Under the pieces are notes generated by a model, which saw nothing but the letters and a program-made list of their open reading frames with translations, was not told the origin of the DNA and made no database searches. From sequence record KY963424: a stretch of 64,000 nucleotides of DNA; one strand, 5' to 3'. The position numbers were made by a program, and so were the translations under genes. Of the stretch, positions 32,744-46,518 are shown one piece after another (position 1 is the stretch's first letter; the number at the start of each line of letters is the position of its first letter). Source of the stretch: Shigella phage SSP1.

Positions 32744-33256
32744 TTACACCTTAAATTGTTGTAGGGCTTTACACATTTCAAGATCTGGACTAAATTCTAA
32801 CATATAGCTAACAGCTCTTAAATCTTGAAGATTTATCCCAGTTCTACCATTGACTATAACTGTTGGATACTGATACATCATAGCACCGGCATCATCCAGC
32901 ACACACCAATGTTTGAGCCTATGCTTTTCAACGAAGCGAAGAACAGAATTACCCCTAGATAATCCACCCCCAGTAAAATCCGTTGTACCAAGAAAACGAT
33001 CGATAAGGCCTAATCCGGTCATAATCTGAACGTTCTCCATCTCATTTCTGACAGAGAACCAAGATGATACTCCAACAATCATTATCGGAGAAGGACGAAT
33101 AAAGTCCTGAAAAGCCTTGAGAAGCGGTTTGAAAACCCAGTCACTTCCAAAGAAAATCTTTTCATCATCAGGTGCATGATGGTGGGAGATGCTCGAATTG
33201 AGCACCCCATCAATGTCTAGAAAAATAATTGGAATATTACTTATTTCCTGACACAT
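32744..33256 (-). CDS. HAD-superfamily hydrolase (putative nucleotidase/phosphatase)
   Basis: N-terminal IIFLDIDGVL HAD motif I (DxDGx). Confidence 0.6.
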   Translation of the reverse strand: MCQEISNIPIIFLDIDGVLNSSISHHHAPDDEKIFFGSDWVFKPLLKAFQDFIRPSPIMIVGVSSWFSVRNEMENVQIMTGLGLIDRFLGTTDFTGGGLSRGNSVLRFVEKHRLKHWCVLDDAGAMMYQYPTVIVNGRTGINLQDLRAVSYMLEFSPDLEMCKALQQFKV

Positions 33257-34052
33257 AAGGTCTACCCCCTAAATGAGCTTCTACACGAGCAATAAAATCA
33301 GTATCACTGAAAGCATCTACCGCACCTTTACTCCAGTAAGGGATACCGCGTTCTTCCAGCTGGTACATCTCACTACGAGTCATACCTTGATAGCTCGGTT
33401 CCGCCGCTAGTACACTATCATAGTAGTTAACAACCATAAGTTTCGCAGCAGTCAAATTAAGAACAGGAAATAATTCCCAATAGAAGTTAATTACTTGGTT
33501 AGAGCAACCAACCACAATGATCATATCTTGACTAGTAATACCATCAAAAACATTATACATTTCTGCATACGCTGGAGCATGCTCCCCAAAGAAGACTACA
33601 TTAGGTTTAACCCATTTATAATCATCTGGGTCAATAGAATTGTATCCTACATCAATAATCCGTTTATTGCTACTATTGTAGCTATCAGCTACAACAACCT
33701 CTTTTAAATATCCGTGAATGTGCAGAATGTCACTATGTGGAACGCCAGCACGCTCAATAAGGTCATCAACGTTGGTAGTCAAGTTTACTACTTGACCTGG
33801 GTATTGTTTATACCATTCACCAATACGCAAATGCGCAAGATTGGGTTCAACAGTTTTTAGCTCTTCACGACGCTTGTTGTAAAACATATGGGTTTTATGG
33901 TAAAAATTACCACGAAAGGCATGAATATTACACACTTCTTCTAGATCATAATCATCCCACAATGCTTTACCACTAGCAGTATCAGTACGAAAAGCTCGTA
34001 CACCACTTTCAACACTCAAACCTGCACCGCTAATAATAATTAACCTACGCAC
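33237..34052 (-). CDS. SIR2-family (sirtuin-like) NAD-dependent enzyme
   Basis: LIIISGAGLSVESGVRAFR Rossmann/NAD-binding sirtuin signature; 271 aa. Confidence 0.65.
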   Translation of the reverse strand: MRRLIIISGAGLSVESGVRAFRTDTASGKALWDDYDLEEVCNIHAFRGNFYHKTHMFYNKRREELKTVEPNLAHLRIGEWYKQYPGQVVNLTTNVDDLIERAGVPHSDILHIHGYLKEVVVADSYNSSNKRIIDVGYNSIDPDDYKWVKPNVVFFGEHAPAYAEMYNVFDGITSQDMIIVVGCSNQVINFYWELFPVLNLTAAKLMVVNYYDSVLAAEPSYQGMTRSEMYQLEERGIPYWSKGAVDAFSDTDFIARVEAHLGGRPYVSGNK

Positions 34053-36876: not shown

Positions 36877-37368
36877 ATGAACACTGAAATAACACAAGAC
36901 CTACTAAGAACTTACTTTGACTATAAAGATGGAGAATTGTTTTACAAACCAACTTATAAAACCCCTGCAGGAAGAATATCCAAAAAAGCAGGTAAATCCG
37001 CCAGACTAACTCCGAGTAACGGGTACTATCGTATAAATGTACCAAGAATAGGTGTACAGAAAGAACATAGGATGATTTTCCTATATCATGAAGGATACCT
37101 ACCAGAAGTAGTAGATCATATTGATAGGGATAAGGAAAATAATAGGATAGAGAACCTTAGGGCATCTAATCTTCAGGACAACGCTATTAATCGCTCCATA
37201 AGTAAGAGTAACACCTCTGGCATTGTGGGTGTCCATTATGATGAATCGTATGGTAAGTGGGTTGTAACGTATAGGGGTAAGTACTTTGGAAGATTTGATA
37301 CCAAAGAAGAAGCTGCCGAAGTTAATGCTAATGTTCGTGCCCTTGATCAAACCCGTATAAATAGTTGA
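36877..37368 (+). CDS. HNH homing endonuclease with AP2 DNA-binding domain
   Basis: VDHIDRDKENNRIENLRASNLQDNAIN (HNH) followed by GVHYDESYGKWVVTYRGKYFGRFDTKEEAA (AP2-like). Confidence 0.75.
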   Translation: MNTEITQDLLRTYFDYKDGELFYKPTYKTPAGRISKKAGKSARLTPSNGYYRINVPRIGVQKEHRMIFLYHEGYLPEVVDHIDRDKENNRIENLRASNLQDNAINRSISKSNTSGIVGVHYDESYGKWVVTYRGKYFGRFDTKEEAAEVNANVRALDQTRINS

Positions 37369-42254: not shown

Positions 42255-42784
42255 TAACGGCATTATATGCAGTTGGGCCGAATGGGGAGTTCGGCCTCCG
42301 AGGTAAACTCCCCTGGGGTTCCTTCAAAGAAGAACTAGATGCTTTCTACTCTCAACTGGACGTGTTGAACCCAGATAACATCATCATTGGTGCGGGCACT
42401 TATTTAGCACTTCCAGAAGTTGTTCGGCAACGTATGATTGGAGAATCTGACCTCTTTATTCGTGCGGATCGTCCTCTGCCTGATGATATTAAACATGGTA
42501 TTTACACTCCAATTTCTAAGATTGGGGATACATTACCTACGTTCTTAAAAGATCAACAGACAGTGGTTTTAGGTGGTGCAACATTACTGTACGAAATGTA
42601 TATTCATGGACATATTGAAAGTGCTTTTGTATCAACAATCTTTAGTAATCAAAAACTAGAGGCAGATGTACATCTGGATAATATGATTCTAGATTACAAC
42701 TATGAATCTACTCGTTTAGTTTACGCAACTGGCGCAAACAGTGATAACAGCCTGCGATTTGTACAGGAATTGGTTACTTATTAA
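42251..42784 (+). CDS. Dihydrofolate reductase
   Basis: MITALYAVGPNGEFG...LPW DHFR N-terminal signature; translationally coupled to nrdB and thyA. Confidence 0.85.
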   Translation: MITALYAVGPNGEFGLRGKLPWGSFKEELDAFYSQLDVLNPDNIIIGAGTYLALPEVVRQRMIGESDLFIRADRPLPDDIKHGIYTPISKIGDTLPTFLKDQQTVVLGGATLLYEMYIHGHIESAFVSTIFSNQKLEADVHLDNMILDYNYESTRLVYATGANSDNSLRFVQELVTY

Positions 42785-43623
42785 TGCAACAATATTTAAA
42801 AATTCTAACAGATGTAATTCTACTAGGTGAACCACGTAACGATCGTACAGGAACAGGCACAGTTTCAATTTTTGATTCCTATGCTAAGTTCGACCTACGT
42901 GAAGGATTCCCTGCCGTAACCACTAAACGTCTAGCTTGGAAATCGGTAGTTGGAGAACTCTTATGGTTTTTATCTGGATCTACAAATCTCCATGATCTGC
43001 GAGTATTCACATTTGGGCGTGACGAAGGACAGTGGACTATCTGGACTCCAAATTATGAAGACCAAGCCATAAGCATGGGTTATGACAGGGGTAATCTGGG
43101 GCCAGTATATGGTAAACAATGGCGCAACTTTGGTGGACGAGATCAGATCCTAGAACTCATTGAGGGTCTTAAGAATAATCCACATGGTCGTAGACACCTA
43201 GTATCTGCATGGAACGTTGCCGAACTAGATAAGATGGCACTACCACCATGTCACTATGGTTTCCAGTGTTACGTAAGTAATGATGGATACTTAGATCTTA
43301 AATGGACACAACGTTCTGTAGACTGTTTTCTAGGTCTGCCTTTTAATATTGCTAGCTATGCTTTATTAACACATATCCTGGCAAAACTGACTGGATTAAA
43401 ACCTCGTTATCTCATCTTTAGTGGTGGAGATACACATATTTACAGTGATCATATAGAGCAAGTAGAGGAGCAAATGAAACGTAAACCACGTCCTTTGCCA
43501 ACTCTAGTAATGCCAGAGTTTGTAGATCTCTATGATTTATTAGAGAATAATACTGCGGCTTGGTCCTTCCAACTTGAAGGATATGATCCACATCCCGCTC
43601 TTAAAGCTAAAATGTCCTCTTAA
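42784..43623 (+). CDS. thyA: Thymidylate synthase
   Basis: RNDRTGTGT, catalytic PPCH, and DxxxxxxNxxxY motifs. Confidence 0.9.
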   Translation: MQQYLKILTDVILLGEPRNDRTGTGTVSIFDSYAKFDLREGFPAVTTKRLAWKSVVGELLWFLSGSTNLHDLRVFTFGRDEGQWTIWTPNYEDQAISMGYDRGNLGPVYGKQWRNFGGRDQILELIEGLKNNPHGRRHLVSAWNVAELDKMALPPCHYGFQCYVSNDGYLDLKWTQRSVDCFLGLPFNIASYALLTHILAKLTGLKPRYLIFSGGDTHIYSDHIEQVEEQMKRKPRPLPTLVMPEFVDLYDLLENNTAAWSFQLEGYDPHPALKAKMSS

Positions 43624-43722: not shown

Positions 43723-44106
43723 ATGAGTAAAGAAATTGAATTAGAACAAGCCCTTCTGAATTACTCCAATTACTTGCAGGGTGATAAAGAAACTATTACT
43801 AAGGAACAGGTATTATTAATACTAGACTCTATCACTTCTAAATTCAGGACTTTAGAAGACTACTACTCTGTAGGCAATGGAGATGAGAAGGTAGAGTTAT
43901 GTCTAAATCTCCTAGAAGATATGGGTTGGGATGAGGAAGATCAAGTAGGGTATTTAGGTATATCTACAGAAATTCTAGAAAATACAGAGCATGAAAATAT
44001 ACTTGAAGTAAAGAGCAGAAGTGCTATTCGATATAATACTTATGGTACAGGTATTACAGGAATAAAAGCATTACTTAGTATAGACATAGGATGGTTAGAT
44101 GAGTAA
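43723..44106 (+). CDS. Hypothetical protein (127 aa)
   Basis: ORF with GGATAA RBS-like sequence. Confidence 0.5.
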   Translation: MSKEIELEQALLNYSNYLQGDKETITKEQVLLILDSITSKFRTLEDYYSVGNGDEKVELCLNLLEDMGWDEEDQVGYLGISTEILENTEHENILEVKSRSAIRYNTYGTGITGIKALLSIDIGWLDE

Positions 44107-44647
44107 AAAGTTACCTAGCCAAGAAAGATTAAAAGAAATACTAATCTATGATCCAGATACTGGTATATTTACTAATAAGGTAAGTCGTGGTAGGGGAGGA
44201 AAAGCAGGTTCGCCAGCTGGATACCTAAGAAAAGATGGCTATATAACTATTAAGATAGATAAAATAGATTATTTAGCGCATAGGTTAGCCTTTCTATACA
44301 TGACAGGATCAATACCTGATTTAATAGACCACAAAAATAGAATTAGGTCAGATAATAGGTGGATAAATCTAAGAGAAGCTACAAGCCAGTCTAATAACAG
44401 AAATTGTACCGCATCGAGTAAATCTGGATATCTAGGTGTACACTGGAACAAACAACTACAGAAATGGCAAGTACAGGTGATTGATAATAATGGTAAAAAT
44501 ATTTACGGGGGTGTTTTTGATTACTTAGACCTAGAAAGTGCGGTCATAAAGGCTAATGAACTAAGAAAAACACTTCATGGTAGCGAAGCAGTTATAGAAG
44601 ATTTCTATACCAACTATTACCCACCAATAGAGGAACTTAATAAGTGA
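44099..44647 (+). CDS. HNH homing endonuclease with AP2 domain
   Basis: DHKNRIRSDNRWINLREATSQSNNRN (HNH) and GVHWNKQLQKWQVQVIDNNGKNIYGGVFD (AP2-like). Confidence 0.75.
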   Translation: MSKKLPSQERLKEILIYDPDTGIFTNKVSRGRGGKAGSPAGYLRKDGYITIKIDKIDYLAHRLAFLYMTGSIPDLIDHKNRIRSDNRWINLREATSQSNNRNCTASSKSGYLGVHWNKQLQKWQVQVIDNNGKNIYGGVFDYLDLESAVIKANELRKTLHGSEAVIEDFYTNYYPPIEELNK

Positions 44648-45120: not shown

Positions 45121-45140
45121 TAAATAAATTAAAAATTCAC

Positions 45141-45169
45141 TTGCTTAAAGCCCTCTAATTTAGTATAAT
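45141..45169 (+). promoter_or_regulatory. T5-type early promoter (TTGCTT-17-TATAAT)
   Basis: AAAAATTCACTTGCTTAAAGCCCTCTAATTTAGTATAAT. Confidence 0.65.
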
Positions 45170-45196: not shown

Positions 45197-45481
45197 ATGC
45201 GGATTTATAACTCAAATTCATTAGGATTTAAGCCATTGAGAAAACGTGCACAATCACCTCGTCAAATAAGAAAGGCTAATATTGGTGAGCCAGAAACACG
45301 TCTTCCACCTCCTCCAGAGCAACGTTTAGTTTATCTGGACGAAGAGTTAGCTGAACGCGAAAGAAAAGCTCAAGAAGAGATTGAGCGTAAGAAAATGTGT
45401 ACTGCTCCAGCCTACTCCAAAGGGGCTTATCAGTATATCTATACAGCCGAGGAGGCTAAAGATGCGGGGCGTAAAAAATGA
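45197..45481 (+). CDS. Hypothetical protein (94 aa)
   Basis: ORF with GAGGAGGG RBS. Confidence 0.5.
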   Translation: MRIYNSNSLGFKPLRKRAQSPRQIRKANIGEPETRLPPPPEQRLVYLDEELAERERKAQEEIERKKMCTAPAYSKGAYQYIYTAEEAKDAGRKK

Positions 45482-45927
45482 AGATTACCGAATTTAAAGG
45501 TACTTATAGTTTCTTATCTAACTTTTATTTATCACCAATTACTTTCGAATACCTAAACGAGATATGGCATGCTGATACTGTAGAACATGCTTTTCAGGCT
45601 ATGAAATCCGACCAAAAAGATGATGTAGCTCATGTACTGCGCTCCCTAAATGCAGGTGTTGCCAAACGTAGAGGACGTAAATTAACTCTGCGCTCTGACT
45701 GGGATAAGGTAAAAGATGATGTAATGCTAGAGCTTTTACGGTTAAAGTTTGCAATCCCTGATTTGAGAGACAAACTGTTAGCAACAAAAAATGCAACTTT
45801 GATCGAAGGAAATACCTGGGGAGATACATATTGGGGTGTTTGCCGAGGAATCGGGGATAATACTTTAGGAGTTCTTTTGATGCAGGTAAGGTCTGAAATT
45901 AAAAGAAGCTTACAGTTAATAAATTAA
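45478..45927 (+). CDS. NADAR-family (YbiA/DUF1768-like) protein
   Basis: 149 aa; FLSNFY...EHAFQA...KSDW...GxxxWG pattern typical of the NADAR domain. Confidence 0.6.
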   Translation: MKITEFKGTYSFLSNFYLSPITFEYLNEIWHADTVEHAFQAMKSDQKDDVAHVLRSLNAGVAKRRGRKLTLRSDWDKVKDDVMLELLRLKFAIPDLRDKLLATKNATLIEGNTWGDTYWGVCRGIGDNTLGVLLMQVRSEIKRSLQLIN

Positions 45928-45935
45928 AAATTCAT

Positions 45936-45964
45936 TTGCTAAACGCTTCAAATTCTCGTATAAT
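45936..45964 (+). promoter_or_regulatory. T5-type early promoter (TTGCTA-17-TATAAT)
   Basis: AAAAATTCATTTGCTAAACGCTTCAAATTCTCGTATAAT + CATAAATTGA box. Confidence 0.65.
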
Positions 45965-46002: not shown

Positions 46003-46518
46003 ATGGCTAAGCAGAAAAACGCAAAAACTCAAGCAGCTCCGGCAGTTAAAACTTTCCCGAAGACTGAGGCTAATCGCAAAGCTCGTCTGGAACGTCACCT
46101 GCGTAAGCATCCTACCGATGCTCAGGCTGCGCAAGCACTGAATAATCCGGCTCCGATTCGTCAGAAGCCTAAAGCTAAAAATGCCACCCGTAAATCCTAC
46201 AAAATGGTTATGTATGTAGAAAATTACGGCCACAAATCTGTCCCAGTTTCCCTGAGCTTCAACGCCGGGGCTGAATTGTTCTCTCGTAATGGCATGGCTA
46301 TGAAAGACTATGAGAAAGCAGTTAACCAAAAACGTAAACCAACGGCAGACGTACTACGTGATGCTCGTGGACAGTTTGGTTCTGTTAAGCCAAATATCTT
46401 TGGCGTAGAGTATAGTAAAGATAACGTTCGCGCTCTGTGTTACGGCGTAGGTATTAAGTTCACGGGTGATTCTGCTCGTAAATCTGCTAAACCAGCTCGT
46501 AAGCGTAAAGCGAAGTAA
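46003..46518 (+). CDS. Basic hypothetical protein (171 aa), Lys/Arg-rich termini
   Basis: Strong RBS AAAAGGAAAACAAATAATG; high-GC host-like codon usage. Confidence 0.55.
   Translation: MAKQKNAKTQAAPAVKTFPKTEANRKARLERHLRKHPTDAQAAQALNNPAPIRQKPKAKNATRKSYKMVMYVENYGHKSVPVSLSFNAGAELFSRNGMAMKDYEKAVNQKRKPTADVLRDARGQFGSVKPNIFGVEYSKDNVRALCYGVGIKFTGDSARKSAKPARKRKAK

Follow-up and report, generated by a model that had tools for sequence, protein, structure and literature searches.

DarT1 joins C1 of ribose to the N2 of guanine in single-stranded DNA, and NADARs hydrolyze the N2-guanine-linked ADP-ribose made in this way (PMC11543638). Not every such enzyme protects cells: E. coli YbiA and T4 gp30.3 hydrolyze guanine-linked ADP-ribose in vitro, yet neither relieves DarT1 toxicity when tested in cells (PMC11125620). 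According to one preprint and the corresponding article (bioRxiv 2024.07.11.602962; Nat Commun 2025;16:1598, PMC11825919), orphan NADARs that overcome DarTG1 are encoded by phages and have been termed AdfN. The closest described case is that of phages Bas32 and Bas33, presented there as 'Markadamsvirinae closely related to T5' and encoding identical NADARs (Nat Commun 2025;16:1598, PMC11825919). AdfN-Bas32 neutralizes DarT1 alone in E. coli, with no phage needed (PMC11825919; bioRxiv 2024.07.11.602962). When expressed from a plasmid, it brings RB69, T5 and Bas25 back to full titer on DarTG1 hosts, and it is guanine-specific, giving T5 no help on the thymine-modifying DarTG2 (PMC11825919). This evidence, as far as the article was available to us, consists of cell and plaque assays, and T5 itself is described there as sensitive to DarTG1 (PMC11825919).

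Identification of the gene and its family

We analyzed a 64,000-nucleotide stretch of Shigella phage SSP1 (record KY963424), hereafter the window. The earlier note, made from the sequence alone, had proposed a 149-aa product of the NADAR (YbiA-like) type at 45478-45927, and this assignment proved exact. The gene (45478..45927, + strand) begins with ATG at 45478, ends with the stop codon at 45925-45927 and consists of 149 codons plus the stop. Its product matches the Pfam family NADAR (PF08719) with 79 bits (E 6.3e-22; the gathering cut-off is 35.1 bits), residues 9-142 being aligned with profile positions 9-163 of 163. It also matches phrog_1017 (E 8e-45), and both matches are far beyond chance. 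A search of a large protein collection returned more than 1000 homologs, and among the matches listed PF08719 was present in 120 of 120. Conservation was assessed using an alignment of 106 of the listed homologs, which are 46-59% identical to the window protein. The homologs align from residue 3 (I3 is kept in at least 90% of them and F6 is invariant), which supports the start codon. Gene and window are similar in GC content (37.4% and 39.4%, respectively).

Membership in bacterial defense families was also considered. PADLOC gave a weak match to a candidate system only (PDC-M42C, 27.8 bits). With the NCBIfam model NF053876 ('NADAR family anti-phage protein') the protein reached 45 bits, where the cut-off is 240. 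Neither result supports membership.

At 147 of 149 positions (99%) the window protein is identical to AdfN-Bas32, that is, bas32_0066 (QXV80247.1) of Escherichia phage IrisVonRoten. The Bas32 accession (MZ501075) was taken from the supplement of the BASEL paper, and the respective region was compared with the window. Both differences (T9A and K104E) fall at positions that are variable in the alignment of 106 homologs. The two alleles differ by 11 synonymous and 2 nonsynonymous changes (dN/dS 0.047), which indicates strong purifying selection on the gene. The two phages are also ~99% identical in the surrounding DNA, both flanking promoters included.

Fold and active site

For structural analysis we used an AlphaFold model based on a multiple sequence alignment (pLDDT 97.6, pTM 0.91) instead of the single-sequence model, which was unusable (pLDDT 49). 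The window protein has the YbiA-like fold, an α-helical core flanked by small β-sheets. In structure comparison the best match was E. coli YbiA (2b3w; score 19.0, 1.7 Å over 144 residues, 37% identity), followed by the Phytophthora nicotianae NADAR (PnNADAR) with ADP-ribose (8bau; 17.4, 1.9 Å over 141 residues, 32%), and a much lower score was obtained for the DarT1-associated NADAR of Geobacter lovleyi (8bat; 8.5, 3.3 Å over 122 residues, 16%). Foldseek returned the same top two structures.

Residue equivalences were derived from sequence and profile alignments to 2b3w and 8bau, and residue roles were assigned following PMC11543638. Residues invariant in the 106 homologs include F6, S14, N15, E36, Q40, K43, K90, E110, D116, W119, G120, N128 and R138; K63, G66, R72 and W75 are kept in at least 90% of them. 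The first active site segment (codons E36 to K43, VEHAFQAMK motif; 45583..45606, + strand) contains the putative distal ribose-coordinating glutamate and the phosphate- and adenine-binding lysine. E36 corresponds to E43 of PnNADAR, E88 of C7 NADAR, E48 of YbiA and E36 of T4 AdfN, while K43, expected to be essential, corresponds to K50, K95, K55 and K43 of the same proteins. The roles of this Glu and Lys come from mutagenesis (PMC11543638 and PMC11257639). The second segment (codons K63 to R67, KRRGR; 45664..45678, + strand) is predicted from the alignment to 8bau and 2b3w to form a basic loop over the ADP-ribose pyrophosphate; here K63 is equivalent to PnNADAR K75 and C7 K115, and R67 to PnNADAR R79. 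C7 K115 is dispensable for catalysis but required for rescue in cells (PMC11543638). The third segment (codons E110 to W119, EGNTWGDTYW; 45805..45834, + strand) would provide the second catalytic acid, E110, which occupies the position of E125 in both PnNADAR and YbiA and of D171 in C7 NADAR, together with D116 (PnNADAR D130) and W119 (PnNADAR W133). Further equivalences to PnNADAR are D74 (D86), W75 (W89), K79 (R93) and R72, the last one substituting for Y84 and being Arg in YbiA as well. The acid at the E125 position distinguishes NADAR types: it is Glu in the YbiA and NADAR types, Asp in the DarG1 type and His in the T4-like type (PMC11543638). The residue mapping thus describes a complete NADAR of the Glu type with a minimal core. 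Profile, alignment and model together bear out the NADAR fold and all of the catalytic residues, the check that the earlier note had proposed for its assignment.

Gene neighborhood and expression

The gene had initially been placed in an early nucleotide-metabolism block, next to RNase H and an HNH endonuclease. The block itself stands, as it also holds thymidylate synthase, ribonucleotide reductases and PhoH, and both RNase H and HNH genes do lie upstream; the immediate neighbor, however, is a homolog of T5.090. Thymidylate synthase (42784..43623) is followed by a 127-aa ORF (phrog_26840; 43723..44106), a homing-type HNH_3 endonuclease (44099..44647), RNase H (PF00075; 44644..45120, GTG start) and the 94-aa T5.090 homolog (phrog_4593; 45197..45481, + strand), the first gene of a two-gene unit with NADAR as the second. 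A DUF7022 gene (46003..46518) lies downstream of NADAR. The phage-encoded NADAR is thus without an adjacent DarT, none of its neighbors (T5.090 homolog, RNase H, HNH, DUF7022) being an ADP-ribosyltransferase.

Each side of the two-gene unit has a promoter-like sequence. Upstream of the T5.090 homolog, direct reading of the sequence revealed a probable sigma-70 early promoter of the bicistron (45141..45169, + strand; TTGCTT, 17 nt, TATAAT). It is absent from the list produced by the consensus scan because its -35 hexamer matches at only 3 of 6 positions; the equivalent position is annotated as a promoter in the T5 record AY543070. Downstream of NADAR, the promoter scan identified the homolog of P-H207 (45936..45964, + strand; TTGCTA, 17 nt, TATAAT), which serves the DUF7022 gene. 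The DNA gained or lost together with NADAR (see below) has no promoter of its own; transcription of the gene presumably starts at the promoter that precedes T5.090. The stop codon of the T5.090 homolog overlaps the NADAR start codon (ATGA), and translation of NADAR is presumably coupled to that of the T5.090 homolog, as judged from this arrangement.

Several other features of the surrounding DNA deserve mention. Upstream of both flanking promoters (45134..45146 and 45929..45941) the motif AAAAATTCAyTTGCT recurs, in which an A-rich element precedes the -35 hexamer. It coincides exactly with the right-hand junction of the NADAR indel as defined against T5. Early-promoter sequences present in several copies might act as recombination points. 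The stop codon of the HNH gene overlaps the GTG start of RNase H. The HNH_3 gene and the 127-aa ORF are absent from T5 and Bas32, and few relatives (Lindwurm, Stp1) cover that part of the query; the window region 43723..44647, comprising both, looks like a mobile insertion. A second HNH_3 endonuclease (36877..37368, + strand), with a weak AP2 match below the Pfam cut-off, is located between the anaerobic ribonucleotide reductase gene and PhoH. About 12 kb upstream of NADAR there are a Sir2-family gene (PF02146, 89.9 bits; 33237..34052, - strand) and a gene with a HAD_SAK_2 domain (32744..33256, - strand). The former represents a further NAD-linked gene of this phage, and a Sir2-like gene is present at the equivalent position in Bas32.

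Distribution and insertion history in T5-like phages

The 2-kb region around the gene matches 440 phage records, those of T5-like phages of Escherichia and Salmonella (Demerecviridae, Markadamsvirinae), the best match being Escherichia phage Lindwurm (96.9%). At least 80% of this 2-kb query is covered in 91 records, and the window allele of NADAR (at least 95% identity) occurs in only 94. NADAR is thus an accessory gene, present in about 94 of roughly 445 Escherichia and Salmonella T5-like records. The T5.090 homolog is, by contrast, a core gene of T5-like phages (539 phage records, including T5). In 95 records it shares 95% or higher identity with the window version, a count that matches the number of NADAR records and is consistent with linkage of the two genes.

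By annotation and alignment of the locus, T5 has no NADAR at this site, and T5.090 is followed directly by P-H207 and T5.089. Starting at AAAAATTCATTTGCT (the -35 region of P-H207), window and T5 sequences are the same, which sets the right boundary of the insertion. At the left side, divergence of the T5.090 protein begins at residue 81, with the tail IYTAEEAKDAGRKK in the window and Bas32 and VSDEEQAKMVGR in T5 and UTK0009. In this comparison the C-terminal tail of T5.090 is remodeled only in genomes that bear NADAR at this site (window and Bas32 versus T5 and UTK0009). Judging from the junctions relative to T5, NADAR and the remodeled 3' end of T5.090 make up an indel of roughly 0.45-0.5 kb. 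The junctions were defined by a global alignment with long cheap gaps and by protein alignment of the upstream gene, as MAFFT misplaced the T5 sequence.

UTK0009 (Epseptimavirus Salmonella phage vB_SenS_UTK0009, NC_111487) carries a different NADAR allele, 60% identical (2489-2938 of the region compared) and unique to this phage in the phage collection. Its slot differs too, as RNase H precedes the gene and a T5.090 homolog of the T5 type follows it. The different allele and slot suggest a second, independent acquisition of NADAR within the same neighborhood of about 1 kb.

The nearest non-T5 relatives examined (about 55-60% identical) are found on phage-like contigs (L006:5001-5826 and L007:5001-5444). 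The 3' end of one is overlapped by a gene with a YAcAr domain, which we take to be another NAD/ADP-ribose-associated domain; nearby are genes for QueC, PTPS and GTP cyclohydrolase I, presumably of the 7-deazaguanine pathway. The other is part of a 168-kb contig with Thg1, a KTI12-like kinase, dCMP deaminase and an adenylosuccinate-synthase-like gene.

Proposed function and alternative explanations

We propose, with a probability of about 0.87, that the gene product is an AdfN-type NADAR ADP-ribosylglycohydrolase, orphan and antitoxin-like, directed against DarTG1. The identity to bas32_0066 at 147 of 149 positions together with synteny makes the window gene an allele of an experimentally characterized anti-DarTG1 factor. 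The mechanism would be as follows. DarT1 of a DarTG1-carrying host would modify single-stranded DNA with ADP-ribose at the guanine N2 amino group and so block phage replication. NADAR would be produced early, as the coupled second gene of the transcript starting at the sigma-70 promoter that precedes the T5.090 homolog. K43, K63, R67, W75, D116 and W119 would hold the phosphates and adenine of ADP-ribose, with the distal ribose positioned between E36 and E110. Hydrolysis of the N-glycosidic bond between ribose and guanine would then restore unmodified DNA. DarT1 would be neutralized in cells and phage growth rescued, with specificity for guanine over thymine.

The individual parts of this scheme differ in their basis. 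DarT1 toxicity and hydrolysis at guanine N2 have been demonstrated in published work, including work on the near-identical ortholog, and by analogy should hold for the window protein as well. To this our analysis adds, for the window protein itself, its family and fold, the conservation of its residues, synteny with AdfN-Bas32 and near-identity to this tested protein. Early expression, the binding of ADP-ribose at the level of individual residues and the need of T5-like phages for NADAR on natural DarTG1-positive hosts are what we infer, as is the lack of functional effect of the T9A and K104E substitutions. Knockouts of the NADAR gene in the native phage were not found for Bas32 or any T5-like phage in the literature surveyed, and the HIDEN-SEQ preprint covers T4 adfN only. 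Three further points weigh against the proposal. The window protein has no N-terminal basic extension of the kind proposed to bind single-stranded DNA in DarT1-associated NADARs, its closest solved relative is YbiA, which does not rescue in cells, and the gene, retained in about a fifth of T5-like genomes only, is dispensable in many settings. Overall, the original suggestion that this NADAR removes ADP-ribose from DNA guanines and thereby counters DarT gains support from the 99%-identical, syntenic AdfN-Bas32. Its reference to DarT-type defense in general needs narrowing, as it holds for DarTG1 (guanine) but not for DarTG2 (thymine), on which the ortholog has no effect.

The most serious alternative is a broad nucleic acid de-ADP-ribosylase whose main natural target is not the DarT1 product but, for example, cytidine-linked or RNA-linked ADP-ribose produced by ADP-ribosyltransferase toxins or defenses of other kinds, reversal of DarT1 being one activity among several. 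NADAR- and YbiA-family enzymes do remove cytidine-ADP-ribose from DNA and RNA, an activity missing in the DarG1-type and T4 NADARs (PMC12945103). In the AdfN paper, ADP-ribosylating defenses yet to be discovered are likewise put forward as possible targets of some phage NADARs, and a close relative of the window protein adjoins the YAcAr domain gene mentioned above. Nevertheless, DarT1 neutralization has been shown directly for the ortholog and is enough to explain retention of the gene. Moreover, a broad range of substrates would extend the AdfN-type explanation rather than exclude it. We see a main target other than DarT1 as unlikely.

Lysine 63 (45664..45666) also deserves attention. We compared the position equivalent to C7 K115 across five proteins (including those encoded at L010:32014-32565 and L005:4308-4766). 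Lys occupies it in C7 NADAR, the window protein/AdfN-Bas32 (K63) and AdfN-Bas60 (YYKRLGR), autonomous rescue being known for C7 NADAR, AdfN-Bas32 and AdfN-Bas60, as opposed to Ala75 in YbiA and Gln in T4 AdfN, neither of which rescues alone. Our hypothesis is that Lys at this position tracks autonomous DarT1 rescue (5 of 5), a correlation from just five proteins. Two more far-reaching readings follow: the minimal Glu-type NADAR might be a broad eraser, acting on cytidine- and RNA-linked ADP-ribose besides the guanine adduct and protecting T5-like phages from defenses beyond DarTG1, and, separately, the single lysine at the K63 position might decide whether a NADAR detoxifies DarT1 in cells unaided. 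We offer these readings tentatively and consider them possible, though on the whole rather doubtful.

Much less probable is a YbiA-like housekeeping N-glycosidase that destroys reactive intermediates of the riboflavin pathway, which would make the gene an auxiliary metabolic one without an anti-defense role. Many GenBank records do carry the label GTP cyclohydrolase II, N-glycosidase or YbiA, and TIGR02464 (riboflavin intermediates N-glycosidase) scores 66.8 bits on the window protein; this is, however, below its equivalog cut-off of 73.7. The Glu at the E125 position considered a signature of the YbiA family (de Souza and Aravind, cited in PMC11543638) is present as E110, but alone it is not decisive because it is also common to stand-alone NADARs. 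Among the genes scanned or listed around NADAR in the window or Bas32 there is no riboflavin-pathway gene, and the closest relatives reside on phage-like contigs rather than in rib operons. The 99%-identical ortholog neutralizes DarT1 in cells and YbiA does not; at position 63 the window protein has Lys and YbiA has Ala. The earlier note had counted placement in the riboflavin subgroup, lacking the residues needed for DNA de-ADP-ribosylation, as evidence against its own proposal; in fact, all of those residues are present.

That DarT1 is blocked by binding or sequestration of the toxin, not by hydrolysis, is hardly credible: some antitoxins do act by binding (e.g. the DarG2 C-terminal domain, PMC11543638), and the importance of C7 K115 (K63 here) in cells but not in catalysis could reflect an interaction with DarT1, but no catalytic residue varies among the homologs, the gene is subject to strong purifying selection, and catalytic mutants of related NADARs lose function (T4 AdfN E36A and K43A, PMC11257639) or rescue (C7 NADAR, PMC11543638), which makes sequestration without catalysis unlikely.

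Implications for annotation and host range

GenBank labels of the gene are inconsistent and include 'swarming motility protein YbiA', 'GTP cyclohydrolase II', 'N-glycosidase', 'DUF1768' and 'hypothetical protein', with a single recent 'antitoxin-like enzyme'. The gene should carry the name AdfN-type anti-DarTG1 ADP-ribosylglycohydrolase, and some of the T5-like records belong to candidates for therapy or biocontrol. Given that T5, which has no NADAR at the locus, is sensitive to DarTG1, presence or absence of the gene is expected to predict which T5-like phages plate on DarTG1-positive hosts.

Two more annotation problems were encountered. GenBank entry OR847649.1 ('Listeria phage LM 4-11-1', 2,093 bp) encodes a protein 100% identical to the 94-aa T5.090 homolog of the window and is probably a mislabeled or contaminating T5-like fragment. 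In several T5-like records small neighboring ORFs are labeled 'tail length tape-measure protein'.

Comparison with known NADARs

AdfN-T4 (gp30.3) belongs to the same superfamily and has the same role, that of an orphan anti-DarTG1 ADP-ribosylglycohydrolase, and its E36...K43 motif even has the same numbering. Yet BLASTP detects no similarity between the window protein and gp30.3 (E 1.2), and profile comparison relates only the N-terminal half (88% probability), which contains this motif. The His typical of the T4-like type in the literature and the Gln of T4 AdfN stand against E110 and K63, respectively, in the window protein, which by both His at the E125 position and similarity to gp30.3 is not a member of the T4-like NADAR family. 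T4 AdfN needs phage infection to neutralize DarT1, whereas AdfN-Bas32 does not. The weak relation to T4 AdfN fits the published view of repeated NADAR acquisition by phages.

DarG1 and other DarT1-associated NADARs (E. coli C7, G. lovleyi 8bat) are encoded in darT1 operons, unlike the orphan gene of the window with no darT nearby. They possess an N-terminal positively charged extension with a proposed role in binding single-stranded DNA (PMC11543638); this basic β1-β2-α1 extension is absent from the window protein. Their second acid is Asp (C7 D171) instead of Glu110, identity is only 16%, and the DarG1-type family profile does not detect the window protein at E 0.01 or better. YbiA is the nearest solved structure and differs from the window protein by Ala75 in place of Lys63. 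It also differs in context, as ybiA is part of the LexA-controlled dinG-ybiB operon (PMC11125620) and the window gene is surrounded by phage early genes.

AdfN-Bas60 (bas60_0111, phage PaulScherrer) is another orphan phage NADAR described as neutralizing DarT1 alone and as belonging to a separate branch of the NADAR tree (PMC11825919). It shares with the window protein the Glu at the E110 position and the Lys in the KRxGR loop, but it is only 24% identical, is longer (183 aa, with insertions) and comes from another phage family and locus.

The correspondence with AdfN-Bas32 is of a different order. The gene order from thymidylate synthase through RNase H, the 94-aa T5.090 homolog, the 450-nt NADAR and the 516-nt DUF7022 ORF is common to both phages, as are the ATGA overlap and the flanking promoters; the HNH endonuclease and the 127-aa ORF that the window phage has between the thymidylate synthase and RNase H genes are missing in Bas32. 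Anti-DarTG1 function is therefore already known, having been published for a protein with just two differences, both at variable positions, and little is new in this respect: family, chemistry and anti-DarTG1 activity of an essentially identical protein of a T5-like phage have all been reported. To this the present analysis adds the accessory distribution of the gene, the contrast with the T5 locus, the insertion site between T5.090 and P-H207, the presumed coupling to T5.090 and the dN/dS estimate.
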